A stretch of 64,000 nt of DNA from Squalus acanthias (Eukaryota): contig CM059431.1 of the NCBI GenBank assembly GCA_030390025.1, forward strand, positions 106,642,001 through 106,706,000, read 5' to 3'. The notes beneath the pieces are model-generated. The model was given only the letters and a program-made list of their open reading frames with translations, was not told the origin of the DNA and made no database searches. Made by a program: the position numbers and the translations under genes. Positions 20,310 to 48,355 of the stretch are shown here, in pieces. Every line of letters starts with the position of its first letter. The first letter of the stretch is position 1.

Positions 20310-22345
20310 TTTCTTTGCTAAGAAATTGGGTTAAAGTTTGGAGACCGTTAAAAACCTGCCGGTGCCACCGCGGGCCGGAGTTAACGGCCACTGGAATCAA
20401 TGGCGCTGGCAGGACCAGGATATTGGTGCTGGCTGCTAATTAACATTAGCCCAGCGCTAAACTTACTGTGTAAAGCTGGTTTTCGGGCAGTAGTCAGAGC
20501 TCAACTGCCTTCTGAAAAAAAAAATTAACGTTAAAAAGAATTCCCAAATGGCCCAGTCTCAGCTCTTAAAGCTGAATTGCCTTCTGCACCAAATAAAAAA
20601 GGGACAAGTGCTTCAGCACTGACACAAATGGCTCAGCAAGCCAGGGAAGGAAGGGGCACCCAGCATTTTGTATGCGGCACTCCAGCTTTGTGCAGGGGGT
20701 CAACACTGCAAGAGAGGTCCTCTACCCACAGGGGCCAGGAGGCCCTCTAGAAATAACGATGTGGGAGTACATCACCGAGGTCGTCACTGCCAGCAGTGCT
20801 GCCCCCACGACCTGGCTCCAGTGCCCAAAGTAGCTTCATGACCTCAGACCAGTGGTCAAGGTCAGTGAATGCATCTTCAAAAGCCGTCTCCTACCAACTG
20901 CACCACTAGCCTCAGACATTTCTCAATGCACAATTCCCCCCCCCAATCACTCACCTACCAACAATCTGTACCAAACAGGAGGCACACCTCCCATTCCTAG
21001 CTTCACCTCACCCCCTTGGAGGAAACGGTGCTGCCATTCTTGGAAAAAAGATGCTGCTATCCTCATACATTATCCTCCTTCTGGCATGCACCTCTTGCTT
21101 TCCTACCCTCCCCTCACCACAACCCCACCCTTGTGCCTTCCTCATTTCACACACCCAAGAAATGCAGCCTGCTCAGCCAATGGTTGACCAAGAAGAGAGA
21201 GAGAGGAGAGTAAAGAAGAAGAAGAAACACCGTCATTCGATTTCACACTCCCAGCCACCAGCCCCTCCAGCAAGGCCATTTTCAGTGTCCCCCACTGAAA
21301 GTCAGCAGCCTTCCACCAGCCATGCTGCAGCCACTGGGGTCGCACTGCGTGACATCAGTAGGATAGGCAAAGGCACACACAACACAGCCACTAAGGGAAT
21401 GCTTAAGGGTGATGAGTTGATTTCTTGATGTCATATTGGATGGATAGGTGTATAAAGTTGGATTGGAAAGTTTACTTTGTGGTGGCTTTTATTTCAGCAT
21501 TGTGGCCAAGAGGATGCTGTAATAGTCAGTAACAGAGGGACGGTAAGGTGTGGGACAAAGGTTGAAAGTGGAATTGGGGTTGTGGTCACTGGTACCGCAG
21601 GTGGATGATTCCATCCCAGATATCCCAGCCAGAAAGGGGCTGTCAGAGTTGCATCTTTCCTTCTGCATCCTCCTCTTCCGCTTCCTCCTCTTCCACTTCC
21701 TCCTCTTCTGATTCCTCCTCTTCTGCTCCTTCCTCTTCTGCGACTCTGCGAGTCGATGCTGGAAATCTGAAATAAAAGCAGAAAATGCTGGAAATACTCA
21801 GCAGGTCAGGCAGCATCTTGACCTGAGACGTAAACTGTGGTTTTCTGTCCACAGATGCTGCCTGACCTGTTGAGTATTTCCAGCATTTTCTGTCTTCTCA
21901 GAGGCCTTCCTTTACCATCTGAGGCCTTGCAAATTTCCAGCAGCACTCCATTCACACTTAAAAAACTTTTAACATGGATTGCACCAAGCCACTACTTCAA
22001 TAAAATATAAAAAATTCCAGTCCAAAAGCTTAAATGCAAACTTACCTGAAGATGTGTGTGTCCCTTTAAGAAGTGCTGACAGCGTCTCTGTCAGTCTGCT
22101 GCACGCTCGCTTTTCAGAGCGAGCTTAGGACCCAGCGCTGAACTCAACGCAAAGGTCCAAGTTTGCAGAGCATGGCGTTAAGTCGGCGTGCACGTCACGC
22201 TCTCCATATTTGCATGTCCAGGGCCACTGACCCCACCAAAATGGCGGCCGCCGATTCCCCCGGCAGAGAATGGCACTACAGTGGCGGCCGCCATTTTTTT
22301 CAGGAAACTGGTGGTAACTCGTGACGGTAATCTTTCCCCCGAAAT
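20310..22345. mobile_element. Internally deleted Harbinger derivative C
   Basis: Degenerate Myb exon 1 at 20628-20860 (REVLYPQG..WEYITEVVTASS..TWLQCPK..HDLRPVVK|GTCAGT), Myb C-terminus at 21250-21420, acidic transposase tail on - at 21600-21740; ends approximate. Confidence 0.7.
21755..21895. mobile_element. Hairpin remnant of Penelope terminal repeat (family Y)
   Basis: CAGAAAATGCTGGAAATACTCAGCAGGTCAGGCAGCATCT and its reverse complement around a partial hammerhead 3' half. Confidence 0.8.
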
Positions 22346-25094: not shown

Positions 25095-25129
25095 AGTTCT
25101 GATGAGGGGTTTACATTGAAACGTTAACT
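25095..25129 (+). ncRNA. Degenerate hammerhead motif (family Y) in Penelope terminal repeat 25080-25222
   Basis: AGUU-CUGAUGA-(weak stem II)-GAAA-CGUU-AACU. Confidence 0.55.
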
Positions 25130-26429
25130 CACCTGCTCTCTCCACAGCTGCTGACTGGCCCGCTAAGCGTTTCCAGCATTTTCTGTTTTTGTTTCGGATT
25201 TCCAACATCTGCAGTTTTTTTCCTTGTTCTTCAAGCTTTTCTTCTATTCTACTCCGAAGAGTGACAAAGAAGTTTTCCGCCGACATTGGGAAATCACTTG
25301 TTAGAGGCCACTTTGGCAGCAGTTAAGAGCCTGTCTACCTTTTTAGCGGGGGATGGAGCGTAGTGCAGGAGCACACAGAAGAGAGGGTGAAGGGAAGTTT
25401 ACAAAATGACATGAAGAAGGGTTAGGTTGTATTATTTGAATCTATTCATTAGTGGCTCTGTAATTTGTGGCTGTTTCCTTTGGCTGTCTGATCATGGCGT
25501 GCTGGCGAATATGTTTTTATCCTTCAATGGTACAGTGCTGAGTACGAGTCAGACGGCCCTGCAATATGGCGGAGTCTCTCTCTGCTTGCATAATGTCTTT
25601 AGAATCCAAACTCAATTTAGAGTTGGAGCCCGAAATAAATACTGATCTCTACAACTGAGACACTAACAAAATTATGCTGTTGAATTAACCAACAACTTTC
25701 GGTCTTATTTTCTCTCACTAATTCTTTTTTCTTTCTATTTGATCTCTTCCTTTAGAATTGTACATAATGCCCGCAATAAAACAATACTAACTCAGATTAT
25801 AATCTACTTGTCTAACTTACAGCAATCATTTTCTAGAAAGAATAGTTATACACTTTCTTAGCTTATGACATGAGTTGTTATGTAACAAGCTCATCATATG
25901 CATAATTATTGTTTGTAGAAAGTGGTTTACTATAAATGTGTTACATGTATATCTCCAGCCGGGCAGTATTTCCAACCACCTTGAAATACCTTCTGGATGA
26001 AGAAGAGCTCAGGATCATATTTAGAGCCCGGAGGTTCCCTGGCCTCTGGCAGGGAGTTGCGTCATTCTGGAACGGAGAGATGGTGCGGCAGATCTTGAGG
26101 CTTTCCTACAGCAGATGAAAGAGGTGGCTAGCAAGTTGCCTGATCAAAAAACTGTGTTTTTAAAAAAATGCAAGCTTTATAAGTGTTGGATTTGTATGGC
26201 GGCGCTTTGAGAGTGCTTACACAGATCAATGTTCAGGTCCCAGTACACCTTCTGAATGCTGGGTTGTGGGTCCTAACAGGCAGCCCCTTAATCCAGCGTT
26301 TTGGCAGTGCAAATGGTAGGAAAGACAGTGGAGGCCATGTTTTCCTCATATGTATCTCTACCATGCACCCACAGATGGCCAAGTACGGTTTCCCCCAGTG
26401 CATATGCAATCTGTGTTTGGTGATTGTCT

Positions 26430-28046: not shown

Positions 28047-28220
28047 TAATTGTACCTCTGTTCTATAGTAGCAGAGTTCTAATTAACTGCTTGCTTGTTC
28101 TTCTTAGCCAAAGAATGATGGTTGGTGCACATATACGAGGAAACATTGAAATAACAACAGAAAACGCTGGAAAAACTCAGCAGGCCAGGCAACATCCGTG
28201 GAGAGAGAAACAGAGTTAAT

Positions 28221-28964
28221 TGCCCAAAAATTAGTGCCGCTACGCGAGAGTACGCACTGTGTACTCTCGCGTATTCTGTCTCCAATTGCCGGTTTTCTGC
28301 ATGCACTGCGCATGCGCTGAAAACCGGCACTTGGTGAATCCAAAAGGGGGCGGTTCCTAGGTGCACCGCGTGCGCGCTACAGGCTGCGCGCACGCAGTGC
28401 ACTTAGTGCTTTGGACGCGCAGGTAAGCATGGAAGATTTTAGACATAAAGAAAGGAGGTGTAAGACCCTCTTTTAACAAGGTAAGTACTTAATTAAGTAT
28501 TATTTTGAATTTTTTTTAACAGGTATATCTTTTTTAGAGACTTTAAAGACAGGTAAGTTTATTTTTATAACTTTTTAAAAGATTTTAAATTTTTTCAAAA
28601 ATTTAATTTTTTGTTTAAAATGGTTAATTTATTTAACTATACTTATTTTATTAATGTGATGGTTTTTAAAAAAAAATTAATTGAGGTTTAGCTGTTCTTT
28701 TGGGGGGGTATAGTATTCATAGCTTTCACAGCCGTGCTGTGAAAGCTATGAATGAAAGATGGTGTGATGCCATTGGCTCTAACTGAGTCACGTGATCCCA
28801 CAGCTCGCACGAATTAACTACGCCTGTGGGATATGAAAGCCCTGCACAGCTGCTGTCCAGAACATCAAGTTCGTGCGAGCTCGGACTGAAAAAGCCAGCG
28901 CGCAGTGAGAGATCGCGGGAAGGCCTTACCCTCGCACGAAGGCTCACTCACTAATTTTTGGGCC
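28221..28964 (+). mobile_element. Harbinger-type MITE M1, diverged copy 3
   Basis: TIRs TGCCCAAAAATTAGTG / CACTAATTTTTGGGCC, perfect AAT TSD (28218-20, 28965-67), homologous to 2724-3486. Confidence 0.9.
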
Positions 28965-28997
28965 AATGTTTCATGTCGAAGACCCTTCGTCAGAACT
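28965..28997 (-). ncRNA. Hammerhead motif (family Y) broken at the cleavage triplet by the MITE
   Basis: AGUU-CUGACGA-AGGGUC uuc GACAU-GAAA-CAUU, with the stem I partner AACU displaced to 28214-28217. Confidence 0.7.
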
Positions 28998-29299
28998 GAG
29001 AAAAAAGCAGGAAATGAAACAGATGAAAAAGCAAGTTGGAGGCTGGGGGAAGGAATAAAAGAACAAAAGTGGGAGGAGGTCTGTGAGAAGTAGAGACATT
29101 AAGAGATGCTCAAGGCAAGACAAGATGGTAATAGGACAGGTTAAGAAAGAAAAGATGGCTCAGAAGTGTGAAATGCGCTGGCAGAATGAAAGACAGCTGC
29201 CACGTGGGAGAGAGAGAAAAAAGGAAAAAGGCACAAACCAAAAGTGTGGATAAAAAAAAGATATATATATATATATATATGGTAGGGACCGAGGTTATG

Positions 29300-30998
29300 A
29301 TCTGAAATTGTTGAACTCGATATTGAGTTGTAGGCTGTAAAGTGCCTAATCGGAAGATGAGGTGCTGTTCCTCGAGCTTACGCTGAGCTTCCGTGGAACA
29401 ATGCAAGAGGCCGAGGACGGTGAGGTCTGAGTGGGCGTGGAGCGGTGAATTGAAATGACAGGCGACCGGAAGCTCGGGGTCACCCCTACGGAATGAACGG
29501 AGGTGTTCCACAAAGCGGTCACCCAATCTGCGTTTGGTCTCCCCAATGTAGAGGAGACCACATCGTGAGCAGCGAATACAGTATACTAGATTGCAAGAAG
29601 TACAAGTAAATCGCTGTTTCACCTGGAAGGGGTGTTTGAGGCCCTGGAGAGTGGGTAGGGGGGATATATAAGGGCAGGTGTTGCATCTCCTGCGCTTGCA
29701 CGGGAAGGTGCCGGGCGAGGGGGAAGGGGTGCTGGGGGTGATAAAGGAGTGGACCAGGGTGTCGCTTCGGGAGCGGTCCCTACGGAATGCTGAAAGGGGA
29801 GGTGAGGGGAAGATACGTTTGGTGGTGGGATCACGCTGGAGGTGACGGAAATGGCGGAGGATGATCCATTGAATGTGGAGGCTGGTGGGGTGAAAGGTGA
29901 GGACAAGGGGAACTCTATCGTGGTTCCGGGAGGGAGGGGCCGGGGTGAGGGCAGAAGTGCGGGAGATAGAACGGACACGGTCGAGGGCCGTGTCGACCAT
30001 GGTAGAGGGGAATCCTTGGTTGAGGAAAAAAGAAGACATGTCAGAAGCACTGGTATGGAAGGTGGCATCGTCGGAGCAGATGCGGCTGAGACGGAGAAAC
30101 TGGGAGAAGGGAATAGAGTTCTTACAGGAGGCGGGGTGGGAGGAAGTGTAGTCCAGGTAGCTGTGGGAGTCAGTGGGCTTGTAGTGAATGTTGGTCAATG
30201 ACCTATCCCCAGAGATGGAGACAGAGAAGTCGAGGAAGGGAAGGGAAGAGTCGGAGATGGACCATGTGAAGGTGAGGGAAGGGTGGAAATTGGAGGCAAA
30301 GTGAATGAAATTGTTTAGTTCAGGGCGAGAGCAGGAAACGGCACCGATACAGTCATCAATGTACCGGAAAAAGAGATGAGAGAGGGGACCCGAGTAGGAC
30401 TGGAACAAAGAGTGTTCCACATATCCCACGAAAAGGCAGGCATAGCTAGGACCCATGCGGGTACCCATAGCAACACCTTTGATTTGGAGGAAATGAGTGG
30501 AGTCAAAGGAGAAGTTGTTCAATGTGAGAACAAGTTCAGCCAGGCGGAGGAGGGTGCTGGTGGATGGGGACTGATTGGGCCTCTGTTCAAGGAAGAAGCG
30601 GAGCGCCCTCAGGCCATACTGGTGGGGGATGGAGGTGTAGAGGGATTGTATGTCCATGGTGAAAAGGAGGCGGTTGGGGCCAGGAAACTGTAAACTGTTA
30701 AAGTGGCGGAGGGCGTTAGAGGAGTCGCGGATGTAGGTTGGAAGAGACTGGACAAGGGGAGAAAAAATAGAGTTGTGATAGGAAGAGATAAGTTCCGTGG
30801 GGCAAGAACAGGCTGAAACGATGGGTCTACCAGGGCAGTCCTGTTTGTGGATCTTGGAAGGAGGTAGAAGCGGGCTGTGCGGGGTTGGGGAACTATGAGG
30901 TTGGCGGCCGTGGGGGGAAGATCTCCAGAGGAGATGAGGTCAGTGACAGTCTTGGAAATGGTGGCTTGATGTTCGGTAGTGGGGTCATGGTCCAGGTG
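29300..30998 (-). pseudogene. Penelope reverse transcriptase + GIY-YIG endonuclease ORF (frameshifts near 30855 and 29330)
   Basis: PRTARFYLLP, MDIQSLYTSIPH, GVAMGTRMGPSYA, RYIDD, LPFLD, YKPTD, CxxxRCxTC, NLVYCIRCSRCGLLYIGETKRRLGDRFVEH. Confidence 0.95.
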
Positions 30999-32309
30999 GA
31001 GGTGTGAAAGAGGGACAGATTTTCCATGAAACAGCATTTCATTGCATGACTCATTTTGTGGTGTGTGTAATTTTCCAATTGTCCACTGAAGAGATTTTCT
31101 AGATTAGCTGCTTTATGTGTTTACACAGTTGATGGAGGATAGATCGGCAGTTCAAACAAACTGAGCTTTGGCTGGTAACTTAATAAGGGAATCACACCAT
31201 CAACACCCTTTGTGAAAATCCAACAACTGCAAAGAGTTATCATTAACTTTTAACATCCTTTTATTTGTTGCTGGCTTTTTTTTCGGTTGTTTTCTTGAAT
31301 TATATTCTGTTATGCAGTAAATGCAGATGAGCTACACGATCAGGGGAGCTTGCAGGAAAACCTATTGAGCCTTGACAGAGCAAGGGAGTTGAATTGCTAT
31401 CAACAGAAATAGTTATTAAGCACAGTGATATTTCAGCTTCGACTGTGCGAGTCAGTTCATCTCATTCACACCACCAAGGCAGTAGTTTTGACGATATATG
31501 GCATCAACACTCACTGCTTAAACAAATATAATGAAAGTGACTTAGGCTCTTAAAATTAACAATAATTATTTGCAATTATTGATTTTTTTGAAAGGTATAC
31601 TGATGGTGAAACAAGCTTAGCCATTAATAACCTTGCACCATTTTGGATTGATAGAATGGCTGGTTGAGTAGCAAGCATGTGAAAATACTATGGGCATGCA
31701 TTGCTATGGTACCATTGTTCTTTCTTGCCCACAATAGAAATCTGACCAATGCTCAGAATAGCTCATCAAGATAAATAGAACTGTGACAGCTTAGATTTTC
31801 CACTGACTTGGATTGACTATATCACCACAAACCCTGAAAGGGTTCTTCAATTTTTAAACATTAAGGCTAATAATCACGATTTCTCGAAAGATAACCTGGG
31901 ACCGGGAATATTTGTAAAATGTCAGAAATACAAGGCTTTTTGCTGAACATTACATTTCTTCACGAGCTTTATACAGCGAAATAAAACATTGTGCCTGGGA
32001 AAATGCAGCACATGTTTGGAATTTAAAAGGCCCATTCCTGTAAGCACTTTGCATTATTCATAACTACAGTAGCTTGTCAGCACTTAGAGTGTAGTCAAAC
32101 ATAAATGATGCAGCAACATCTTTGTTCAAATGCAATGTTACTAAATTATACAACACATTGTGTAGTCTAGTACTTTAAGTACAGTGCATTTTTAAATGTA
32201 ATATGAAAAATTAAAGTCTCATCTTAAAGGCTTTTCCTCTAGATAATCAGATTTGATTGCACTAATAGTTATTTGCTCCATTTATATAGATATTTTTTAT
32301 TTTTTTATT

Positions 32310-32888
32310 TTTATTCGTTTTATGGGATGTGGACGTCACTGGCAAGGCCAGCATTTATTGCCCATCACTAATTGCCCTTGAGAAGGTGGTGGTGAGCCGC
32401 CTTCTTGAACCGCTGCAGTCCGTGGGGTGAAGGTGCTCCCAGTGCTGTTAGGGAGGGAGTTCCAGGATTTAGACCCAGCGGTGATGAAGGATCGGCCGAT
32501 ATATTTCCAAGTCAGGATGGTGGGTGACTTGGAGGGGAACTTGGAGGTGATGGTGTCCCCATGCACCTGCTGCCCTTGTCCTTCTAGGTGGAAGAGGTCG
32601 TGGGTTTGGAAGATGCTGCCGAAGGAGCCTTGGCGAGTTGCTGCAGTGCATCTTGTAGATGGTGCACACTGCAGCCATGGTACGCCGGTGGTGGAGGGAG
32701 TGAATGTTTAAGGTGGTGGATGGGGTGCCAATCAAGTGGGCTGCTTTGTCCTGGATAGTGTCGAGCTTCTTGAGTGTTGTTGGAGCTGCACTCATCCAGG
32801 CAAGTAGAGAGTATTCCATCATACTCCTTACTTGTGCCTTGTAGATGGTGGAAAGGCTTTGGGGTGTCAGGAGGTAAGACACTCGCAC
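32310..32888 (-). mobile_element. LINE family A 3' fragment
   Basis: ORF 32469-32888 RVSYLLTPQSLSTIYKAQVRS.. plus tail. Confidence 0.9.
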
Positions 32889-32904
32889 AATAAAGGAAAT
32901 GATT

Positions 32905-33325
32905 CATAGAAACATAGAAACATAGAAAAATAGGAGCAGGAGTAGGCCATTCGGCCCTTCGAGCCTGCTCCGCCATTCAACACGATCATGGCTAATGCTC
33001 TATCTCAATACCATATTCCCGCTCTCTCCCATGATCTTATTGAATGGCGGAGCAGGTTCATAGGGACGAATGGCAAAAGAACCAGAGGCGAGATGAGGAA
33101 AAACTTTATTATGCAGCGAGTTATTATGATCTGGAATGCACTGCCTGATAGGGTGGTGGATACAGATTCAATAGTAGCCTTCAAAGGGGAATTGGATAAA
33201 TACTTGAAGGAGAAAAAATTACAGGGCTATGAAGAAAGAATGGGGGTGAGACTAATTGGATTCCTCTACGAAAGCTGACTCGATGGGCCGAATGGCCTCC
33301 TTCTGCACTTCAAGATTCTATGATC
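32905..33325. mobile_element. Cluster of CR1 3' ends in both orientations
   Basis: (CATAGAAA)n tail on -, then + fragment F..QRV..IWNALP..FKGELDKYL. Confidence 0.8.
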
Positions 33326-33921
33326 GGGAACGAAGGTGTCGGCTGGTTAAACATCTGGCCGGGCGGGTCCTGTGGAGCCTCTTGAGGGAGCCGCTCTGAC
33401 ATTCTGAGACGTCCGCGGGGGTGGGTTGGGGGGTTTGGTGGGGGTGGTTTGGGGGAGGGCTGTGACACTGCTAATGCTCGGACGAAAGTTCCACACTTCT
33501 GCATGATAGCACTGGAATTCCAAACTCTTGTAACAATAGACTTAAGTATATTTAAAAAGGGAAATGATCTTTAATCTGTTTTGCACAGGCTATCGAGGCC
33601 GTAGACTGTGATTCCAACAGGCAATTGCTGTGATATCAATGACTCAAGATAGCATCGGCAGAAATTAATTAGCAAGCAACAAAAAACGAGTATGTCCAAG
33701 GAAGAGAGAGAGAAAGTGATCAGAAAAAGTTTAATGAAACTTTTAGTGTCATGCTTAAAATCTTGTATCAATTCTTATCTTATGACCTTCCTTTGTTGTC
33801 TACCTCTTCAGGTCCCTGGGCTGCAGATGCTCAACTCACTCGTTTTATCTATGACAGCAAAAAATCTTGCAGTGAGCAATCATACTTGTCCATGCTGCTT
33901 TCTAGTTCTCTCTCTCTCTCT

Positions 33922-34525
33922 CTGTCTTAGGCAGTCCCTCGGAACCGAGGATGACTTGCTTCCACACTAAAAATGAGTTCTCAGGTGACTGATGAGTCCA
34001 ATGTGGGACCTACAGTCTCTGTCACAGGTGGGGCAGACGGTGGTTGAAGGGGCGGGTGGGTGGGGTGCTTGGGTTGACGTGCGCTCCTTCCGCTGTTTGC
34101 GCTTGGCTTCCGCTTGCTCCCGGCGAAGAGACTCGAGGTGTTCGGCGCCTTCCCGGATGCTTCTCTTCCACTTTGTGTGGTCTTGGGCCAGAGATTCCCA
34201 GGTGTCGGTGGGGATGTTGCACTTTTTCAAGGAGGCTTTGAGGGTATCCTTGAAGCGTTTCCTCTGCTCACCTGGGGCTCTCTTGCCATGTCGGAGCTCC
34301 GAGTAGAGCGCTTGTTTTGGGAGTCTCATATCGGGCATGCGGACGATGTGGCCCGTCCATCGCAGCTGATTGAGCGTGGTCAAAGCTTCGATGCTGGGGA
34401 TGTTGGCCTGCGCGAGAACACTGACGTTGGTGCGCCTATCCTGCCAATGGATTTGCAGGATCTTGCGGATGCAGTGTTGGTGGTACCTCTCCAGTGCTTT
34501 GAGGTGCCTGCTGTACATAGTCCAT
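33922..34525 (-). mobile_element. RTE-clade LINE 3' fragment, open frame
   Basis: LERYHQHCIRKILQIHWQDRRTN..QLRWTGHIVRMPDMRLPKQALYSEL..RKRFKDTLK..CPTCDRDCRSHIGLISHLRTH. Confidence 0.9.
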
Positions 34526-35244
34526 GTCTCTAGTTACCTCACTGGTTGCAAGTGAACTTGTGGTTAACTGGATTGTTCTGCAGATCGGTTGGCTTCTATC
34601 AACTGATAGGACAAGTTATTGAGTCAGATTTGCAGCATTTTCCCCTTGTTATTCAGAGCTTTCTGGCCAGATCTCAGTCTCGACTGTGCAGTCGAGAACA
34701 GGAGATGAGTGCATGCCAGCTGCTTCCCCTGGAGGCAAGTCGCACCAAGCCACCCTTGTGCACCCCAGCAACCATTCAGCAGAGTTGCTCTTGTCATTGT
34801 TACTGAGCCTTCTTTAAGTATCTAATGACAAATTGTTATTTAGGCTTTTATTTAAATGTTTCTAAGTGTGAAGCTGCGAATATTCAAACATCCTAACCCT
34901 GCAGCTTATATAATGGGGATTGATCCCTGTCCACTCTGATGTTCCCTTTCCTTTCCTAATTGAGGCATGACTTTCACCGCTCCTGGTAAATGATGAACCT
35001 ATCTCTGTCCACATGGAATCCGTTGTCTCGCAGGTATACTGACGGCTGTTACTTTCTACATCATTTCAGAAAATCAGGTATGAAAATAGACTGTAAAAAG
35101 GAAAAACTTGCAGGGTTATGGGGAAAGAGCAAGGGAGTGGGACTAATTGGATAGCTCTTTCAAAGAGCACAATGGGCCGAATGGTCTCATTCTGTTCTGT
35201 AAGATTCTATAATTCTATAACAGGTAGTCCCCTCTACACAACGT

Positions 35245-35515
35245 CTTCTTCTTCTTAGGCAGTCCCTCGGAATCGAGGATGACTTGCTTCCACATTAAAA
35301 ATGAATTTGCAGGTGACTGATGAGTCCAATGCAGGACCTACAGTCTCTGTCACAGGTGGGGCAGACGGTGGTTGAAGGGGCGGGTGGGTGGGGTGCTTGG
35401 GTTGACGTGCGCTCTTTGCGCTGCCTGCGCTTGGCTTCCGCTTGCTCCCGGCGAAGAGACTCGAGGTGTTCGGCGCCTTCCCGGATGCTTCTCCTCCACT
35501 TTGTGCGGTCTTCAG
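35245..35515 (-). mobile_element. RTE-clade LINE short 3' fragment with (GAA)n tail
   Basis: Nearly identical to 33926-34185. Confidence 0.9.
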
Positions 35516-37102
35516 CCAACGTCACCTTATAGGTGAAATCCAACAGAGTTACTGTTGTCATTGTTGCTAAGAAAGAGCTATACGATTAGTCCCACTCCCC
35601 TGCTCTTTCCCCATAGCCCTGCAATTTCTCTCCCCCTTAAAGTATTTATCCAATTCCCTTTTGAAAGTTACGATTGAATCTGCTTCCACCGCCCTTACAA
35701 CTCGCTGTGTAAACATTAAAAAAAAAGATATATTACATTTGTCTGGCATTAGCCTGATGCACGCTTTCATCTAATTTGTTAACAGTGTAGAATAGTTGAG
35801 GCTCAGCAGGTTACAAGAAGCAAAAACCAACTTCTGTCAGTGACAAAGTCGAACTTTTCAAGCACAAACAGCAGGCTTGCTTGCCGACAAATTGTGACAA
35901 CAAAAAGAGTTATAATTATAATATTAAACAGGACAAGGCAGTTAGTTGTTTCAGTAGCACCTGCAGAGCAATGCAACCGATTGTATACAACTCAGAGAAT
36001 TAATAGTATCTTGAAAAAAAGTCATTATGTTTTCTATATACTGTTGTTTAATCATAAAACAGAATGGTATAATAGCAGCAGCTCCGAGAAGTGCCCGTTT
36101 CATGACATGACCGTTAAACATGCATTGTAGAATTTAACTGTACATTTCATATTTTGAAGGCCTCTATTATCTTAAATTATGTTGGCATATTACATTAACT
36201 TGTGGCTAAGCCATATATTTAGGAACCGATGGCAAATTGCTATTTAAGACTTGGGTCATTTATTTTGCTCATACAAGGCAGTATAAGTATATAACAACAT
36301 CATAGGAATGCACAAACTGTACGAGTCAGTGAATCTTGAAATCTTACCTTGATTATTTATGGATACAAAACAGAATCCGTGTATAGCAAAATCATGAGGG
36401 GAATTATGCGTTCTTACAGTGTAGGTAATAGAAATGTGATATAAAGACAGAGGCATAAATGGCAGAATTGCTTCTAGGAATCTGATAAATGTCAAACATT
36501 AATATACTGTACATTCTTCTGCGCATTTTGCAGGAGTCTGCTGAAATATTTTATCGAAATAAGGACTTGCAGACACCATAACATCAGAGAAATGCAACTT
36601 TAAAATCTGGATTGATGAAACACAAACCCAACCAGCCCTGGTTTTGAGGAGATAACTTTGTATGAGATTAAACCCATACCACGCAGCCATCAATCCTGCG
36701 ACACTCAATTGAGATGTGGGTTATGTGTATCCTTGAAACAATTTGCTGTTTGCCTCTTGTTCGGACTGATTTCTAATTTAAAAAAAATATTTATGCAATG
36801 TTAAATTCAGCATTTTGTTAATTAGCTAGCCAGAGAGGGAATTGCAACTAGTCAATTGTAGATATTCCAGTACTAGCATTGCTTATTTATACAGGTTACT
36901 GTAGTTTTTAAAAAATGGAAAGAGACTAGGAGGTCAGTCCGCTGAATTGTTTACTCATTGACAAGCATCTTAGGTGATCAACAAAGATTGATTTTGTTCA
37001 ATGTTGACAGGCAACCATTCTGGGTTATTTAAACAATGAGATATGCTGTTTGCTCAGTCTGAGGCTCTTGGTGGTTGAAAGCTCGACCGAATGAACACTT
37101 GC

Positions 37103-38120
37103 GGGGTTAATTTTGGTGGAAGTGTGAAAACAGGTGCTAAATGGGTGCTACACGAATAAGACACGCCTTTTTGAATGTCTGGTTTTAGCATGCAATTTAG
37201 ACCCTAATTGCTGATTTGAAGGTGCCTGGAGGCGCTAAATCAGACACCTGCAGGTATAGCACTCAAGCGCTGGTTAGACGCAATTTTCATAGAGCAGTAT
37301 ATGTGGGCACCACGCACCCACTTCCACTGAAGGTGTGGAGTGGGCTGGCTGACAGACAGCCGCAGGTTTCAGGGTGGCTCAGGGACCGAGGGAGAGGGTG
37401 CACAGGTTCTCTGAGGTCCTGGCGAATGTGGTCCAGAGGAGGAGGGATGTCTTGTACCCGCAGGGGGGAAGGAGCCCACCTCGCCCTCCTGTCCCTCTCT
37501 CCTGCAGCAGCTGGTTCTGCTCTACCTTGGCCTCATGTCCTCCTTGCATTCCTCCTGCAGACCAAGGGGGACCCCTAGCAAGATGCCGGTGACCAAGCAC
37601 TCCCTTTCTCCTGGTGACTCCTATGAGGTGTCCAATAAGGTAGAGCAGCACGGCACTCACTCTTTTTTGGTGAAGCCCTCAGAGAATTTCCAGAATAAAT
37701 GTTGATAGAGTGTTGGTGAAGTGTCCCAGAAAGTCTCCCAATGTGTTTCAAAAGTCCATTTCAAACCTCCAGCAACAAGTGGACATTAAACGGTAATGTA
37801 CCTTTAAGTAGTGCTCGAATTTCTCAGCAATGGCTTGTTTACTCCTGTTCAGCTGGTCACTGTTAGGCGAGGTCGTTAAATGAAGTGTTATCCACCAAAA
37901 TGGCGTGCAGCCTCTTTAATGATCGCTAGCAGGCAATTTAATTGTCAATCAGTCCCCTTAACAATCCTTCGGGTGGCCATTACTAGCGCTGGCTTCAACT
38001 CCTTGACCAAGATAGCATCTTGCGCGAAACGCAGGCAAAACCAGCGTTGCAGCTTAAGACCCCATCTTGGCCACATCGTTACCTCTTTAGCGCCTAAAGT
38101 ATTCAGCCCAAATCACCCCC
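37103..38120. mobile_element. Short Harbinger derivative D
   Basis: Termini GGGGTTAATTTTGG / CCCAAATCACCCCC; Myb start GPRERVHRFSEVLANVVQRRRDVLYPQGGR at 37374-37470; TAGCGCC motifs shared with element A. Confidence 0.7.
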
Positions 38121-39379
38121 TTGACCTCCAAGCCTTAAGGAATGCTGTCGCTTAAACAGAGTGGGCAAGATTGCCTGAGCAGTCAGTAACACAAATTCCG
38201 GACCAGCTAGCTTTAGAATAGCTTAACTTGAAAGTAAGCCTATGCCTGGGGGAGTCAGTAAGGTTGAAAATTGTCCGTTCTCACTGTGATAAATGTAATC
38301 TGTTCACTTTCTTACTTTATGTCAAAAAGTCTGGTTTGCTGATTTGAGGTCGTGCCTCATCTCAATAAATGTCTTCTCAATCTGCTTTCCATGAAGAGAG
38401 AACACACATGGCAGTATATATGATATTACAATAGCTGCTATATGGCACGAGAGGTCTCTGTTATGATCCTTGGGTCGTGCTGTCATTTAGCTAGATATGG
38501 TGCAGTAAGAGTTACACTCCAGATCATAGGGAGAATGAGGTCCACTTACGGGACTGAGCAGTGATGCTGAATCCAAAAGAATATCTTGTGTGAAACCTGA
38601 GTATTGTTACTATTGTAAACACCTTAATTCAGAGTGAATCACAGGCACATTTTAATTCAACCTAGGATTTCTTGGAGTGTGGTGTAATAAGATTCAGTGC
38701 TCAAATCCCCAAGCACTCTCTCTCCTAGACCCCTTTAGTCATTGCACTCAGGTTAGTATGGACCAAGAGATGAGAGAAAAGACATTTATTCCAGCAAGGT
38801 AACGGGTAACGTCTACCCAAACGGAGTAGGGCCCACTCAGTATGTCGACTAAAATCATTACGTTATTGACAAACACCATTTCCAATCGTACATTCTTAAA
38901 GTGTAGTGCAATTATATTGCCAATGGTTCTGCTTGGTTCTAGTATGAGTACAGCTGGAAAGAGATGGGGTGAGAAAGAAGGAAAGATAGAAAGAGAAAAA
39001 AGTGAAGAAAAGAGAGCCAAGAGGCAACAAGCAGTAGGAAGGTCTAGGTCACTTCTACAGATATATACATCTCCGTCAATTCCTTCTCCTTTACTCCCTC
39101 CCCCCGTTTGCCAGAGGACAGGATTTGATGCTCAGCTCCCTTGATGGCTTGTTTTAGTTTATTGGAATGTTCCAGGGGCCTGAATTCCCACATTACAACT
39201 CCCTAATTAGTACTGAGGCCCTACTATTGTCATGGCAATAGTGCTACGTCCAGCCATTCAAACATTTTTAAAAATCCTTTCATATAGATTTAACTTTTTT
39301 CAGCGTATCTTGTCGATTACAGTGGCATTCTGGAAGGAGAATGCACTCAGTGTGGTTCTGTTATTATTGGCGATAGCAA

Positions 39380-39500
39380 GCCTGAACTCCTGTCATTGGT
39401 TCCCGGTTAAGCGGCGCCTTGATTTCGAAATTCTCATCCTTGTTTTCAAATCCCTCCATAGCCTCGCCCCTTCCTATCTCTGTAATCTCCTTCAGCCCCA
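39380..39500 (+). mobile_element. L2 fragment
   Basis: HWFPVKRRLDFEILILVFKSLHSLAPSYL, typical L2 ORF2 motif. Confidence 0.75.
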
Positions 39501-40362
39501 CAGTTTTTCCCGCATTTTCTGTATTTACTGGGATATATTTGCGCCTTTTTAAAGGTACATAAAAGCATGAAGAATTACCAACTACAGTAGTGACTTTCTG
39601 TACTGTTCTACTGTTCAGTATGATTGATGAATCAGTGAACATTTCCTAATTCAAAGTATTCCATGAATAGAACACAATATAATCATTTTAAATATACAAT
39701 CCCCAACATGATTGGTGTTAGCGCAAGTTGCCCGCTATAAGTTACACCACAATAGGTTAAGTCTCCTCATTTCGATCTCACTGATAAGCCTCCTCATTTC
39801 GTTGCTCTAACAAACTGAAGCTAGCCAACATATTCTCGACGGGCTGAAATCAAACAATATTCAGGCGCTAAGGATTAAACGGGAGCCTATGAATCCACAG
39901 CCAGTTTCGATTGTGTTTTTCTCTCTTCCTCTCTTCCTTTTCACGGCTCTATTTTGATGCCTTTGATGAATCCAATTACTAAGACAAAGGGCCGATTTCA
40001 CAAATGCAGGGGATTAACGAGGTGCAAACTTATTGAAGAACCTATTGATTTGCCCAAAATAGCCAGCGCCCTTAATATGCTATACATGGTGCCTTTGTAA
40101 TTGACTCTTGTGGTACTGGCAAATGGTTAATGCTATTTTCCCAATATGGGCAGCTGCCCATGATAAGCATGGATGGTGTAAGTGGTGGGGACCGAGTTAA
40201 ATGTGTGCTCAATGGTTGGTTTAATTCATTATTGTGATAAAGATAAACAGCTTGCCAGTGCTTTTAAACACCAACAGAAAATGCTGGAAATACTCAGCAG
40301 GTCAGGCCGCATTGTGGAAAGAGAAACAGAGTTAACGTTTCAGGTCGATGACCCGTCGTCAG

Positions 40363-40395
40363 AGTTCTGATGAAGGGTCTTCGACCTGAAACGTT
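40363..40395 (+). ncRNA. Hammerhead motif (family Y); mirror copy on - strand at 40330-40366
   Basis: AGUU-CUGAUGA-AGGGUC uuc GACCU-GAAA-CGUU; minus copy CUGACGA-CGGGUC auc GACCU-GAAA-CGUU-AACU. Confidence 0.75.
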
Positions 40396-40936
40396 GGGCT
40401 AGATTTTAATGGACCTCAGAGGGTGGGTATGGAGGCAGGTCGGCAGCGAAAATTTGAAAAAATGGCGGTTGGCGGTGAAACTCGCCGCCAACCCGCCCCC
40501 ACGCTAATTCCGTAAGTGTCGGGTCAGCCGCTCCCGAACTCACCCAACACCAAACGGCGGGACAGGCAGTTAAGGCAGTTAACAGCCCGTTAACTGCCTT
40601 GCTAATCCTATTTTAATCTGCGATTCTGATTTTGGTGCTTTTGGCTCCTGTTTCCCGTCTTCGGAGAAACACGCCAGCTGCAATGAGTCGGGTTTCTCAA
40701 GGACATGATTTGTTGTCAGTTGCTGCAGCAGCTTAAAAGCGCTCCTGCAACATGGCTGCCATTCAAACGCCACAACTTTGTTGTTGGAGGTTTGGGATAA
40801 GATTTTGCAAATCTACTGACCTTGTGACTGTTCAAGCTGACACCCATCTGCAGTGTTATCTGATTGGAATAATTTCAGGCCACTTTGAGTGTGTGCTTGC
40901 AAGCTTCTTGCCTCAACTAAAATCTATAGCAACGGG

Positions 40937-41935
40937 ATGGGAACCATTTATATCCTGTCATCCTGGTCATCAGATTCGGAGGAAGAGCAGCCTTGGCAGC
41001 ACCACAACCAGCCACAACAGCAGCACCAGCACCAGGAGCGCCAACCTCCTCCTCACCCACCTGATGCTGCACAGGGCGGAGGGCCTCAGCGCAGGGCTGC
41101 ACCGCGCCGCAGGAGATACCCCCAACACAGGGTTTACAGGCCGAGGATCAGCTTCCTCAGCATGACTGAGCAGCAGTGCCAAAGGAGGCTGAGACTTTCG
41201 AGAAACGTAGTCGCTGACATCTGCGCAATGCTGCACCAACACCTGGAGCCCAGAGGAGCGTGTGGACACTCCTTACCAGTGGCTGCCAAAGTCACCACTG
41301 CACTCAACTTCTTTGCTTCGGGCTGCCTCCAGGGATCAGCTGCAGACATAAGTGGCACCTCCCAGTCGGCCGCACACGCCTGCATCACGCAGGTCACTGA
41401 TGCACCCTTTGCAAAGGCCCACAATTACATCCACTTCTCCAAGGATGGTCCAAGTGTGACCGCAGGTGCGGTTGGCTTTGCCAATATGACAGGCTTTCCA
41501 ATGGTGCAGGGCGTCATAGACTGCACACATGTAGCCATTAGGGCCCCCTATTACAACCCAGCTGTATCTGTCAACCGCAAGGGATTCCACTCCCTGAACG
41601 TCCAGCTGGTGTGTAACCACAGCAAGATCATCATGCATGTTTGCGTTAAATATCCTGGCAGTTGCCATGACTCCTTCATCCTGTGCCAGTCTACTGTGCC
41701 TCAGCTCTTCCATCCAACAACCCAACTTTGCGGATGGTTACTTGGTGACAAGGGCTATCCCCTGAAAAAGTGACTTATGACATCGATGAGGAGGCCATCA
41801 AACGAGGCTGAGGAGCACTACAATCTTAGCCACTTATCCACCAGAAGCATCGTCGAGCAAACCATCGGCTTGCTCAAAATGTGCTTCCGGTGCCTGGACA
41901 GATCTGGTGGAGCCCTGCAGTATGTACCAGACAAA
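40937..41935 (+). pseudogene. Harbinger DDE transposase (in-frame stop at 41771, C-terminus truncated)
   Basis: [58 protein letters not shown]; after the stop RSIVEQTIGLLKMCFRCLDRSGGALQY. Confidence 0.95.
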
Positions 41936-41953
41936 TGACTACCCTTGTAACTA

Positions 41954-42904
41954 TTAGTGCTTTAACTTCCTCTTACGCATGCTCCTACGTGGTATTTCCC
42001 CTGTGGCTTCAACAGATGTAGAGGCACCTTGCTCACTTTGGTGATGCGCCTGCTTAGACGCCTTTGGCATGCGTCCTCTGGGTTTGGGAGCCTGTGAGGG
42101 CTCCTCCACAGTCTGCTCTTCCTGCGTCTGTGCAGGGGCTGAGACGGCCATCTCAGTTGGGTGAGGAACCTGGGGCTCTGACCGAGGGCTCCCCCACTTC
42201 CAGCTCCTTGCTACCTCCCATTATGTTATGAGCAGCCTCCTCAGCGTGAGTTAATGTGGCGGGTGATGGTGTGCTTCTTCCTGTCTTGGCTCTCTCCCTC
42301 TTATTGTGGGCTCTCTTTTCCTGCAAGGAGGGACACAAGTGGAGTTTCAGCGAGAGTGATGGAGTGAGTGTGACGAATCCCTAAGGTAGAATCTTAGAGG
42401 GAGACCAGGATGGAGTGAGGTGGCAAGAGGAAGGTGCCTCCCTGTGCCTTGTTAGATGTTGTCATTGCATAACAGTGAGAGCGAGTGTGAGGGGTGCATA
42501 GCAGGATGGTGAAGTGATTTAGTACAGAGAGAGAGATAGAAAGGTAAGGGTGCAAGGGAAATAAGGGTAAGGTGGGATGTGGAGGAGCAGGCTGACAATG
42601 CAGTGCTGGTGATGAGAAGAGAAGGGAAGCAGAGTGAAGGTCAGTGTGATGTGAAACTCACTTTTGATGTTCGGACAAGATCATTGAAGTGTTTGCGGCA
42701 CTGGAGCCAGGTGCGTCCACACAGCGACCTTGCGCTGACCTCCTCAGCTATCTCCAGCCAGGCTGCCTTCGTCTGTTGAGGAGGCTTCCTGCGGCCATCG
42801 GCAGGGAACAGAATGTCCCTGGGCCCTCTTCCACCCTCTAGAAGAGCTTGCAGGGAGTCGTCATTGAATCTACGAGTTGCCTTCCTGCCTGTGGCAGCAC
42901 TCAT
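41954..42904 (-). pseudogene. Harbinger Myb/SANT-like gene: exon 1 42904-42662, intron 42661-42321, exon 2 from 42320, basic C-terminus
   Basis: RRFNDDSLQALL..ILFP..KAAWLEIAEEVSA..RTWLQCRKHFNDL; GTGAGT donor, TTGCAG acceptor, in-frame EKRAHNKRERAKTG; frame break near 42153. Confidence 0.85.
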
Positions 42905-43289
42905 GGTGATCCTGACCCTTTCCAGCAGCAGCAGCGATGAGAAATGAGAGGCTGAGGCTACACGGAGCCCTTAAAAAACAAGTGCAGCAAAGACCTCATC
43001 AGTGCAGACCAACAGATCGACTGCAACTCATTGCAGCAGGCAGCGCGCACAATGGGACTAATTGGACCAATTAAGTCAAAATGGGACACTGGCAGCGGCT
43101 GAAACCGGCAGCGGGTCCGAAACCCACCCACCAGGCAACCCGACTCCCTCCCGCCTCCTCCGTTAAAATCAAGGCCGTTAAATCTGTTTCTCTCTCCACG
43201 ATGCTGCCTGACCTGCTGAGTGTTTCCAGCATTTTCTGTTGTTGTTTCAGATTTCCAGCATCCGCAGTATTTTGCTATTGTGCCAGTGA

Positions 43290-43500
43290 TTTTAGTAGAG
43301 GGATAAATATCGGCCAGGACACCAGGGAGTACTCCCCTGCTCTTCTTTGAATGGTGCCGTGGGATTTTTAGCTCCATCTGAGAGGACAGACGGGGCCTTG
43401 GTTCAACTTCTTATCCAAAAGATAGCACCTCTGACAGGGCAGCACTCCCTCAGTACTGCACCGGGAGTGTCAGCCTGGATTCTGTGCTCGAACTCCCTGG
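43290..43500 (-). mobile_element. Deu-domain SINE fragment
   Basis: Reverse complement matches 14340-14535. Confidence 0.8.
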
Positions 43501-44444: not shown

Positions 44445-47282
44445 TCAGTACCCTGTCCCTGCTTTCTCCCCATATCCCTTGATCCCCTTAGCCTTAAGAA
44501 ATATATCTAACTCCTTCTTGAATATATTTAATGAATTGGACTCAACTGCCTTCTGTGGTAGAGAATTCCACAGGTTCACCACTCTCTGGGTGAAGAAATT
44601 CCTCCTCATCTCAGTCCTAAATGGCTTGCCCCTTATCCTTAGACTGTGACCCCTGGTTCTGTACTCCCCCGCCATCGGGAGCATCCTTCCTGCATCTAGT
44701 CTGTCTAGTCCTTTTAGAATTTTATAAGTTTCAATGAGATCCCCTCTCATTCTTCTAAACTCTAGCGAATACAAGCCCAATCGACCCAATCTCTCTTCAT
44801 ACGTCATTCCTGCCATCCCAGGTATCAGTCTGGTGAATCTTCACTGCACTCCCTCCATGGCAAGAACATCCTTCCTCAGATAAGGCAAAGAAACTACACA
44901 CAATACTCAAGGTGTGGTCTCAGCAAAGCCCTGTACAACTGCAGCAAGACCTCCTTGCTCCTGTACTTGAATCCTCTCGCTATGAAGGCCAACATACCAT
45001 TTGTCTTCTTAACCGCCTGTTGCACCTGCATGCTTACCTTCAGCAACTGGTGCACAAGGACATCCAGGTCTCGTTGCACTTCCCCTGTTCCCAATCTATT
45101 GCCGTTCAGATAATAATCTGCCTTCCTGTTTTTGCCACCAAAGTAGATAACCTCGCATTTATCCACATTATACTGCATCTGCCCAATCACCCAACCTGTC
45201 CAAATCATACTGGAGTTTCTCTGCATCCTCCTCACAGCACACACGCCCACCCAGCTTTGTGTCATCTGCAAACTTGGAGATATTACATCTAGTTCCCTCG
45301 TCTAGATCATTAATATATATTGTGAATAACTGGGGTCCTAGCACCGATCCCTGCAGTACCCCACTAGTCACTGGCTGCCATTCGGAAAAAGACCCGTTTA
45401 TTCCAACTCTTTGCTTCCTGTCTGCCAACCAGTTTTCTATCCAAGTCAGTACCTTACGCCCAAACCCATGTGCTTTAACTTTGCATGCAAATCTCTTATG
45501 CGGGACCTTATCGAAAGCCTTCTGAAAGTCCAAATACACCACATCCACTGGTTCTTCCTTACCTATTCTACCAGTTACATCCTCAAAAAATTCCAGTAGA
45601 TTAGTCAAGCATGATTTACCTTTTGTAAATCCATGTTCACTTTGTCCGATCCTGTCACTGTTTTCCAAGTGCTCTGCTATTACATCTTTTATAATGCACT
45701 CTAGCATTTTCCCCACTACTGATGTCAGGCTTAATTCCCCGTTTTCTCTCTACAACCTTTTTTAAATAGTGGGGTTACATTAGCTACCCTCCAATCCATG
45801 GGAACTGTTCCAGAGTCTATAGAATTTTGGAAGATGACCAGCAATGCATCTATTATTTCTAGGGCCACTTCCTTAAGTACCCTAGGATGTAGACTATTAG
45901 GCCCTGGGGTTTATCGACCTTCAATCCCGTCAATTTCCCTAACACCATTTCCCTACAAATACTGATTTCATTCAATTCCTTCTTCTCATTAGACCCTATG
46001 TTCCCCGACATCTCTGGGAGGTTATTTGTGTCCTCCTTTGTGAAGACAGAACCAAAGTATGTATTTAATTGGTCTGCCATTTCTTTGTTCCCCATTATAA
46101 ATTCCCCTGATTCTGACTGCAAGGGACCTACGCTTGACTTCACCAATCTTTTTCTCTTCACATATATATAGAAGCTTTTACAGTCAGTTTTTATGTTCCC
46201 TGAAAGCTTACTCTCATACTCTATTTTCCCCCTCTTAATTAATCCCTTTGTCCTCCTTTGCTGAATCCTAAACTGCTCCCAATCCTCAGGTTTGCTGCTT
46301 TTTCTGGCCAATTTATATGTCTTCTCCTTGGATCTTATGCTATCCCTAATTTCCCTTGTTAGCCACGGTTGAGTCAATTTTTTGTTTTATTTTAATGCCA
46401 AACAGGGATGAACAAATTCTGTAGTTCATCCGTGCGATCTTTAAATGTTTGCCATTGCTTATCCACCGTCATCCTTTTAAGTAACGTTCCCCAATCCATC
46501 CTAGCCAACTCACGCCTCATACCATCATAGTTTCCTTTATTTAAATTCAGGACCCTAGTCTCTGAGTCAACTACTTCACTCTCCATCTTAATGAAGAATT
46601 CTATCATATTATGATCGCTCCTCCCCAAGGGGCCTCGCACAACAAGATTGCTAATTAATCCTTTCTCATTACATAATACCCAGTCTAAGATGGCCTGATC
46701 TCTAGTTGGTTCCTCGACATATTGGTCCAGGAAACCATCCCGTATACACTCTAGGAATTCCTCCTCCACAGTATTGTTACTAATTTGGTTGGCCCAATCT
46801 ATATGTAGATTAAAGTCACCCATGATAACTGCTGTGCTCTTATTGCACGCATCTCTAATTTCCCATTTAATGCCATCCCCAACCTCAGCATTACTGTTTG
46901 GGGGTCTGTATGCAACTCCCACTAACATTTTCTGCCCCTTGGTATTTCTCAGCTCTACCCATACTGATTCCACATCATCAGAGCTAATATCCTTCCTTAC
47001 TATTGTGTTAATCTCCTCTTTAACCAGCAATGCTACCCCACCTCCTTTTCCTTTTTGCCTGTCCTTCCTGAATATTGAATACCCCTGGATGTTGAATTCC
47101 CAGCCTTGGTCACCCTGGAGCCATGTCTCCGTAATCCCAATTATATCATATCCGTTTATATCTATTTGCGCAGTTAATTCATCCACCTTATTACGAATGC
47201 TCCTCGCATTAAGACACAAAGCCTTCAGGCTTGTTTTTTTAACACTCTTAGACCTTTTAGAATGATTGTTTACTGTGTCCAT
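44445..47282 (-). pseudogene. CR1 ORF2 (APE endonuclease + RT), frameshifted
   Basis: [54 protein letters not shown]. Confidence 0.95.
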
Positions 47283-47404
47283 GTTTGATTTACACCCTTG
47301 ATTTCTCTGACTTCCACTTTTGCTTTTCTCCTTCCTGTCTTTTTCTTCTATCCTTGCTTCCCTTTCCTCTGTCTCCCTGCACAGGATCCCAACCCCCTGC
47401 CATT

Positions 47405-48355
47405 TTAGTTTAAACCCTCCCCAACAGCACTAGCAAACACTCCCCCTAGGACATCGGTCCCAGCCCTGCCCAGGTGCAAACCGTCCAGTTTGTACTGGTC
47501 CCACCTCCCCCAGAACCGGTTCCAATGTCCCAGAAATTTGAATCCCTCCCCCTTGCACCATTCTTCTAGTCACGTATTCATCTGAAATATCCTTCTATTT
47601 CTACTCTGACTAGTACGTGGCACTGGTAGCAGTCCTGAGATTACTACCTTTGAGGTCCTATTTTTTAATTTACCTCCTAACTCCCTATATTCAGCTTTTA
47701 GGACCTCATCCCGTTTTTTACCTATATTGTTGGTGCCTATATGCACCACGACAACTGGCTGTTCACCCTCCCCCTCCAGAATGCCCTGCAGCCGCTCCAA
47801 GACATCCTTGACCCTTGCACCAGGGATGCAACATACCACCCTGGAGTCTCGTTTGCGGCCGCAGAAATGCCTATCTATTCCCACTACAATAGAATCCCCT
47901 ATCACTATAGCCCTCCTGCTCTTCTTCCTCCCCTCCTGTGCAGCAGAACCAACCATGGTGCCAGGAAGTTGGTTGCTGCTGCCTTCCCCCGATAAGCCAT
48001 CCCGCCCAACAATATCCAAAGTGGTATATCTGTTTGAGAGGGGAATGGCCACAGGGGACCCCTGCACTACCTGCCTGCGCCTACTACTCTGCCTGGCGGT
48101 CACTCATTCCCTTCCTGCCTGTGCAGCCTTTACCTGTGGTGTGACCAACTCATTAAACGTGATATCCACGATGTCCTCAGCATTGCGAATGCTCCAGTAT
48201 GCATCCATTCGCAGCTCTAGCGCCACAATGCGGTCTGCCAGTAGCTGCAGCTGGATACACTTCCTGCACACATGGTCGTCAGGGACACAGGAAGTGTCCC
48301 TGATTTCCCACATAGCGCAGGTGGAGCATGCCACGGGGCCGAGCTGTGCTGCCAT
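47405..48355 (-). pseudogene. CR1 ORF1 (zinc-finger/coiled-coil + SGNH esterase), internal stops
   Basis: CSTC..CRKC, LELR heptads, IGDSIV, PGA, HIGTN motifs typical of CR1 ORF1 esterase. Confidence 0.9.

Follow-up and report, generated by a model that had tools for sequence, protein, structure and literature searches.

PIF/Harbinger DNA transposons are described as having extended target preferences, which in plants cover 9 bp and in vertebrates 15 bp (PMC2836001). The zebrafish element Harbinger3_DR integrates into the palindrome AAACACCWGGTCTTT, and the flanks AACAC and AAGAC reported for it fit the motif R-A-N-W-C (PMC3016246). In the minimal hammerhead ribozymes of Penelope-like retroelements, an extra base precedes helix II, helix I is short, and helix III is absent (PMC4209133). 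Here, we describe a locus at which these two kinds of element meet. The window, a 64,000-nt stretch of the Squalus acanthias genome (GCA_030390025.1, CM059431.1:106,642,001-106,706,000, forward strand), contains two Harbinger-type elements, designated E and M1 (the latter a miniature inverted-repeat transposable element, or MITE), both inserted at the NUH cleavage triplet of a repeat, Y, that carries a putative Penelope-type hammerhead. Genome-wide, the NUH triplet of Y is a true insertion hot spot, used far beyond chance. We consider it quite probable that the hot spot reflects ordinary sequence preference, the hammerhead core spelling the general target motif of these Harbinger families.

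Both insertions in the window can be read base by base, and the coordinates given for them in the original prediction proved exact. In the Y copy interrupted by E (plus strand), the stem I 5' strand and hammerhead core at 40365-40392 (pattern match, no mismatches; CTGATGAAGGGTCTTCGACCTGAAAC on the left flank of E) are followed by GTT at 40393-40395, which is the NUH triplet and the left target-site duplication (TSD), then by the 2,781-bp element at 40396-43176, the right TSD GTT at 43177-43179, and the Y tail, which resumes as AAATCTGTTTCTCTCTCCAC and extends over 43180-43290 by sequence reading and BLAST. On the minus strand, the third M1 copy of the window gives GAAAC-ATT-M1-ATT-AACTCTG. Its parts are the hammerhead core (CTGACGAAGGGTCTTCGACATGAAAC; 28968-28993, two mismatches to the pattern), one ATT at 28965-28967, the 744-bp MITE at 28221-28964, the second ATT, at the NUH position, at 28218-28220, and the Y tail from the stem I 3' strand onward at 28147-28217 (BLAST to Y tail, 90% over 73 nt). 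The MITE was delimited by sequence reading, BLAST, and comparison of terminal inverted repeats (TIRs), here (T/G)GCCCAAAAATTAGTG, with T and not G as the first TIR base at one end. We rejected a 2-bp AT duplication beside a T-extended TIR: the genome copies show GAGTTAAT/GGG (a slash marks the junction), which makes the T a mutant version of the first TIR base, and the form GAGTTAAT/GG recurs in 25 genome copies. As had been predicted, each insertion parts the core from the 3' strand of stem I, moving it 0.7-2.8 kb away, and judging from the sequence this would abolish the ribozyme of that copy.

Uninterrupted copies provide the empty site. The original prediction listed three of them, and two are indeed intact, reading GAAACGTTAACTC at 25118-25130 on the plus strand (Y copy 25095-25220, by sequence reading and BLAST) and at 40329-40341 on the minus strand (Y copy 40265-40362, by pattern match and BLAST, head-to-head with the copy interrupted by E). 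The third, read at 51763-51840 on the plus strand, has GGAACGTTAACTC at 51789-51800, a mutated core (GGAAC).

To go beyond two loci, we used pattern counts and retrieved stretches over the 3.71-Gb assembly. A map of Harbinger and MITE junctions along Y, which the original prediction had put forward as its check, gave a sharp peak at the NUH triplet in both families. When M1 was searched for from the hammerhead core (CTGATGAAGG, a gap of 4-34, then the TIR), six of seven matches lay in Y, and all six Y junctions had the form GAAAC+RWT/TIR. When it was searched for from the tail (GCAGCATCTGTGG, a gap of 4-34, then the TIR; junctions within +/-15 nt), 41 matches were recovered, comprising 25 exactly on site, 4 on site in Y copies whose length differs slightly, 5 within 1-2 nt (indels), and 7 elsewhere. 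The tail-anchored position scan for relatives of E (hereafter E-like) placed 19 of 23 junctions on site, with two at +6, one at +8, and one at -3. Counted directly, the M1 junction CTGAAAYRWT/GGGCCAGAAATTCGG occurred 71 times, 58 of them with GAAAC (26 ATT, 18 GTT, 13 AAT, and 1 GAT); subtracting ~4 expected non-Y matches and 4 apparent segmental duplicates on contig C30 leaves ~50 independent insertions. The E-like junction CTGAAAYRWT/GGSCNNGATTTTAA occurred 59 times, 42 of them with GAAAC (25 GTT, among them the insertion in the window, 14 ATT, and 3 AAT). By upstream context, 34 of 87 left-hand E-like junctions (GAAAC-NNN/GGGCTSGATTTTAA) were of the Y type, as were ~44 of 57 on the right side (GAGTT-NNN).

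The Y site makes up ~2.3e-5 of genome positions (about 0.002%). It holds ~50 of ~4,950 M1 insertions (about 1%) and ~78 of ~3,796 E-like termini (about 2%), counts of E-like termini being inflated by tandem 35-bp arrays that carry an E-like TIR word (CCCYGAGGAGGCGGGTTT-GGGCTKGATTTTAA) in each unit (C16:41723373-41723687 and C1:119566396-119566567). Raw enrichment over random positions is therefore ~450-fold for M1 and ~900-fold for E-like elements. Nevertheless, 97-99% of these Harbinger insertions lie outside Y, so neither family shows the mark of dedicated targeting, in which most insertions fall in the target. Of the Y sites, which number at least 83,000, only some 150-200 (about 0.2%) are occupied by an M1 or E-like element. 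The proposal that Harbingers form a system for targeting and inactivating Penelope fails on these numbers, and the two occupied loci of the window are a rare local coincidence selected by scanning.

A peak of this kind could also be inherited, if retrotransposition or segmental duplication had multiplied one or a few ancestral composites of Y and insert. On contig C30, five junctions 110-170 kb apart do resemble segmental duplication, and three core-anchored junctions have the stem II variant GGGTCCCAGACC in common. However, at 18 retrieved Y+M1 loci M1 points the same way as Y nine times and the opposite way nine times, which indicates that the insertions were independent and recurrent. Even the three GGGTCCCAGACC copies are not all oriented alike, the triplet and the Y flanks change from junction to junction, and junctions are found on nearly all large contigs. 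Among E-like elements, type-B ends adjoin Y on its left 34 times and on its right ~44 times. On the 9:9 orientation of M1 we rejected composite amplification, which we regard as having almost no chance of explaining the shared junctions.

Target preference outside the repeat was summarized in two matrices, from 113 non-Y E-like flanks and from 114 M1 flanks at 60 loci. The rows left out were two flanks located in Y, a duplicate, and a near-duplicate, all from the first 64 E-like rows; also left out were L024 (an insertion in Y), nine tandem-array rows, five rows with a repeated internal context, one further duplicate, and the window's own row. A cruder, hand-tallied matrix, which gave an expectation of ~3, was replaced by the computed M1 matrix. 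The E-like flanks hold 3.2 bits per half-site, mostly at -8 (G/A in 95), -7 (A in 88), -5 (A/T in 98), and -4 (C in 69), with G at -3 in 5; only 37 of 113 match GA..C. The M1 flanks have A at -5 in 69, T/C at -4 in 100, A at -3 in 92, and T at -1 in 101. Outside Y, the motif of the two families is R-A-N-W-C plus a 3-bp TSD. The left half-site of Y (GAAAC-GTT-AACTC) fits this motif perfectly, and the right half-site (GAGTT, read inward) fits it partly.

Slid along five intact Y copies, the matrices built without Y ranked the NUH triplet first of 123 positions in both families. The likelihood ratio (LR) at this triplet was 143 for E and, for M1, 59 with GTT and ~930 with ATT (runner-up position, 10). 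The other-strand GAAAC within Y, at +6, was used by E-like elements twice versus 15-19 times on site, about as expected from a predicted ratio of ~0.09. A general local sequence preference, which the original prediction had offered as its fallback, thus accounts for the NUH peak.

From these data we infer that the transposase reads DNA sequence, with the ribozyme as such playing no part in the choice. Autonomous E-like elements, elements derived from them, and M1 MITEs would belong to PIF/Harbinger lineages whose transposases pick an extended, roughly palindromic target consisting of R-A-N-W-C, the duplicated 3-bp triplet, and G-W-N-T-Y, with M1 preferring its flank (A-Y) less strongly and its triplet (A-W-T) strongly. 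In the hammerhead, the conserved GAAA-C, the NUH triplet, and the start of stem I spell a very good copy of this motif. With the core spelling the motif, each Y copy would be a high-scoring target, and independent insertions would consequently pile up at the cleavage triplet. Disruption of the ribozyme would be a by-product, in about 0.2% of copies.

How far sequence preference goes quantitatively can be judged from the M1 matrix, which is well calibrated outside Y: it predicts an occupancy of 1.0-1.35e-4 at non-Y GAAAC/ATT slots, and ~1.1e-4 was observed (~27 junctions in ~250,000 slots). Several results in Y weigh against preference as the whole account. M1 junctions on the left of Y number ~50 versus 14-20 expected, M1 junctions on site in the tail-anchored search 25-34 versus ~9.9, and E-like type-B ends on the left of Y 34 versus 5.8-7.1, which leaves a residual 2.5- to 6-fold excess for which the matrix model does not account. 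Non-Y GAAAC/GTT slots hold one E-like end (scaled, ~1.3) in ~36,000, compared with 19 in ~75,000 in Y, so that Y stands ~7-fold above non-Y for this matched 8-mer, with n = 1 outside Y; for the matched 8-mer GAAAC/ATT, Y stands ~20-fold above. Outside Y, the right half-site GAGTT is enriched only ~2.5-fold. The triplets at Y-located M1 junctions are ATT or AAT in 39 of 58 cases, yet GTT occupies 82 of the first 100 empty sites listed; M1 may have picked decayed copies, or the triplets may have changed after insertion. Finally, the matrix gives position +8 in Y an LR of 114 for E, a near-equal second site, yet 2 junctions were found there, compared with 42 at the NUH triplet with CTGAAAC. This misprediction means that E is not modeled faithfully by a simple additive matrix; one built from ~100 noisy flanks probably flattens the real specificity.

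A control is provided by an unrelated repeat, Z (CCCCACAAGTGGAAAC-ATT-CTCTC...), which has ~25,700 copies, about half with ATT (for example, C1:441161 and C1:857028). Seven M1 junctions lie in Z at the same relative position (GGAAAC/AWT), a per-copy rate of 2.7-5.8e-4 versus ~5.9e-4 for Y (~50 in ~85,000). Within Y, M1 junctions off site within +/-15 nt were also over-represented, at 7 versus ~0.5 expected. The off-site excess, the rate in Z, and the use of +6 at its predicted level together argue against a residual excess peculiar to the ribozyme site. The idea of preferred landing in a ribozyme repeat holds in part: the hot spot is there, but Z is hit about as often per copy, and the 2.5- to 6-fold residual leaves slight room for a further preference. 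A third recurrent M1 context, ACTAATCTGNGGAAAC/AAT, was seen four times.

One use of that room would be an evolved safe haven, in which these Harbinger lineages tuned their motif to a hammerhead core that is under functional constraint in a high-copy Penelope element, so that some of their insertions do no harm by falling within another transposon. The residual excess is present in both families, and the hot spot and its raw enrichment are likewise common to the two, as such tuning would have it. However, the small share of M1 and E-like insertions that fall in Y speaks against it, as do the similar occupancy of Z, the off-site excess, and the occurrence of the same flank motif in zebrafish Harbinger3_DR (PMC3016246). 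We think this scenario improbable. Were it true, a catalytically constrained hammerhead core would be a stable, abundant, and harmless landing pad for a Harbinger lineage. That the few-fold excess reflects genuine co-adaptation, with a DNA transposon homing to a retroelement ribozyme and disabling it as a side effect, we likewise find improbable.

The residual might instead come from neighborhood or retention bias, with Harbinger insertions and Y copies gathering or surviving in shared compartments, or with head-to-head Y dimers favoring integration, which would raise all counts within Y relative to genome-wide denominators. The above-expectation count at off-site Y positions fits such a bias, as does the position of Z, about 2.5- to 5-fold above generic GAAAC/ATT sites. 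AT content is higher in the flanks of M1 (60%) than in the genome (54.5%), and head-to-head Y pairs 40-60 bp apart are frequent. This bias could cover the residual only and not the exact position of the peak, and we judge it an unlikely explanation. On the reading that we favor, the nesting is sequence-driven, not the work of a dedicated anti-Penelope system, and its effect at the family level is negligible.

Repeat Y has the layout ...CCAGTT-CTGATGA-A-GGGTC(W)TCGACCT-GAAA-C-GTT-AACTCTGTTTCTCTCTCCACAGATGCTGCC..., in which CUGAUGA and GAAA cores and an extra base ahead of a 5-bp helix II can be recognized by inspection. Helix I is 4 bp (AGUU/AACU), helix III is absent with a palindromic ACGU in its place, and the NUH triplet is GUU. 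The consensus by inspection, CTGATGA-A-GGGTC(WTC)GACCT-GAAA-CG-TT/AACT, has both the conserved core and the palindromic 15.2-16.2 positions. An exact Y 29-mer was found 1,113 times in the assembly, and the strict Y word CTGAAAYRTTAACTC 82,875 times; among the first 100 matches listed for the latter, 82 have CG, 11 CA, and 7 TG. No Rfam covariance model matched Y as a hammerhead at the gathering threshold or at E<=10, as expected because the minimal forms required their own descriptor in PMC4209133. When the Y core was folded with ViennaRNA, both the monomer and the dimer gave helix II but little further information.

The link to a Penelope coding region comes from one copy, that interrupted by M1. 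On the same strand, ~120 bp upstream of its hammerhead, lies a 609-amino-acid open reading frame (ORF) without internal stops (29113-30939, minus strand). Its match to the reverse transcriptase (RT) model RVT_1 is weak, at 27.2 bits, and falls under the cut-off of 29.6; inspection by eye showed a YIDD box and, at the C terminus, a GIY-YIG-like motif, and its Atlas neighbors, at a score of 0.96, belong to clusters that hold HTH_animal, RVT_1, and GIY-YIG. "Penelope hammerhead repeat" is a reasonable name for Y, given the core motifs and the RT ORF context. Y would be the terminal, minimal-hammerhead-bearing part of a Penelope-like retroelement with more than 80,000 copies. Copies are often arranged head-to-head, as -/+ site pairs 40-60 bp apart (for example, C1:1437234/1437272), and such pairs form near-perfect palindromes around the hammerhead cores; examples in the window are 40265-40395 and 21755-21893.

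As described by Cervera and De la Pena (2014, PMC4209133), Penelope minimal hammerheads share with Y the core CUGAUGA...GAAA and a palindromic ACGU at 15.1-16.1, and they too occur at very high copy number and in pairs on opposite strands. Their paper reports no DNA-transposon insertions at the hammerhead cleavage site, unlike what is seen here.

Element E is a genuine PIF/Harbinger. It has GTT on both sides, hence a 3-bp TSD, and TIRs identical at 15 of their first 20 bases. Its transposase ORF (40889-41938, plus strand) matches DDE_Tnp_4 (PF13359) at 58.3 bits over 40889-41770 and at 31.9 bits over 41774-41935, with a single stop at 41771-41773 between them. A second ORF on the minus strand (42644-42970), for a Myb/SANT-like DNA-binding protein, matches Myb_DNA-bind_5 (PF13873) at 27.7 bits. 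The E-like relatives L093, L096, L098, L102, L114, L120, and L024 also have identical 3-bp flanks, and L024, a 1,741-bp element, has GTT and intact Y on either side. The original prediction called the two Harbinger-type elements unrelated; they do belong to different families, but their TIRs have GGSC..GA..TT in common (GGGCCAGAAATTCGG versus GGGCTCGATTTTAATGG) and their flank preferences are alike.

M1 is a short, high-copy, putatively non-coding family with copies of 650-1,030 bp and TIRs of 15-16 nt; 9,936 termini in the genome match GGSCCAGAAATTMGG with a one-letter filter. We found no autonomous partner sharing its TIRs, although no systematic search was made. The 3.3-kb M1-bounded copy L019 was considered as one and rejected, since it carries a nested RT element and no transposase. 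All three M1 copies in the window have an AT-rich center with three or four consensus-like 5' splice-site motifs (AGGTAAGT; at 28420-28570, 2930-3070, and 15720-15340).

Insertions of M1 in Y sites of known empty sequence agree with a 3-bp duplication. Among 54 copies with both ends, 23 have identical 3-bp flanks, 14 differ at the middle base only, and 17 differ otherwise. The middle-base discordance is AAT versus ATT (loci L026-L085; in the window, 2721-2723/3487-3489 and 15943-15945/14915-14917). At Y, 13 of 58 left M1 junctions read AAT, though the empty sequence is GTT or ATT. A simple duplication cannot produce such pairs; conceivably, bases that flank the element at the donor site travel with it on an overhang.

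The remaining M1 copies of the window lie outside Y. Copy 1 (2724-3486, plus strand) and copy 2 (14918-15942, minus strand) both have the flanks ATT...AAT, as determined by BLAST and flank reading. Copy 2 is nested in the transposase gene of a second, diverged Harbinger at about 13764-18680 on the minus strand (DDE_Tnp_4, 85 bits at 13805-14323), which it breaks after the stretch encoding FTEDQWVRRFRLTKD (15946-15990); no clean TSD could be identified at the end of this second element. A 264-bp E-like MITE occupies 2336-2599, with the ends GGCCCTGATTTTAA and GGGGGTGATTTTAA, and a clean 3-bp duplication was sought there and none identified. Elsewhere in the window, an ORF at 46395-47429 on the minus strand encodes an apurinic-type endonuclease domain (Exo_endo_phos, 50 bits) and presumably derives from a long interspersed nuclear element.

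Set against the zebrafish pair Harbinger3_DR and Harbinger3N_DR, E is alike in its two ORFs (DDE_Tnp_4 and Myb-like), its 3-bp TSD, and its extended palindromic target. Whereas Harbinger3_DR duplicates CWG and is described as highly specialized for its full 15-mer, here the triplet of E-like elements is only loosely rich in A/T, that of M1 is A-W-T, and the best-populated single target is a ribozyme core inside another transposon. The plant elements mPing/Ping/Pong and maize PIF have a TSD of TWA (TAA/TTA) within a 9-bp preference, unlike M1 with AWT and a flank motif here of 5-6 bp per side. Recurrent insertion at one exact base is familiar from R1/R2 and Pokey in ribosomal DNA and from Tx1L in Tx1D, where most or all copies sit in the target, unlike the two families here. 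Judged by titles and the openings of abstracts, our searches yielded no work linking Harbinger insertions to Penelope hammerheads. The behavior exemplifies the extended target preference already known for PIF/Harbinger; the novelty lies in the motif used by these particular families and in its coincidence with a ribozyme core.

No new defense or targeting system is revealed. For annotation, the finding carries a warning: in this genome, a Penelope terminal repeat that is split at GAAAC/NTT usually conceals one of the Harbingers or MITEs. With an empty site that is known exactly, the nested insertions serve as a natural reporter of Harbinger integration chemistry, and it is they that expose the middle-base discordance of M1. 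Together, the two families show cleanly, in a natural setting, how a target motif of 13 bp makes a high-copy repeat an insertion hot spot, with more than 100 independent insertions at one triplet.

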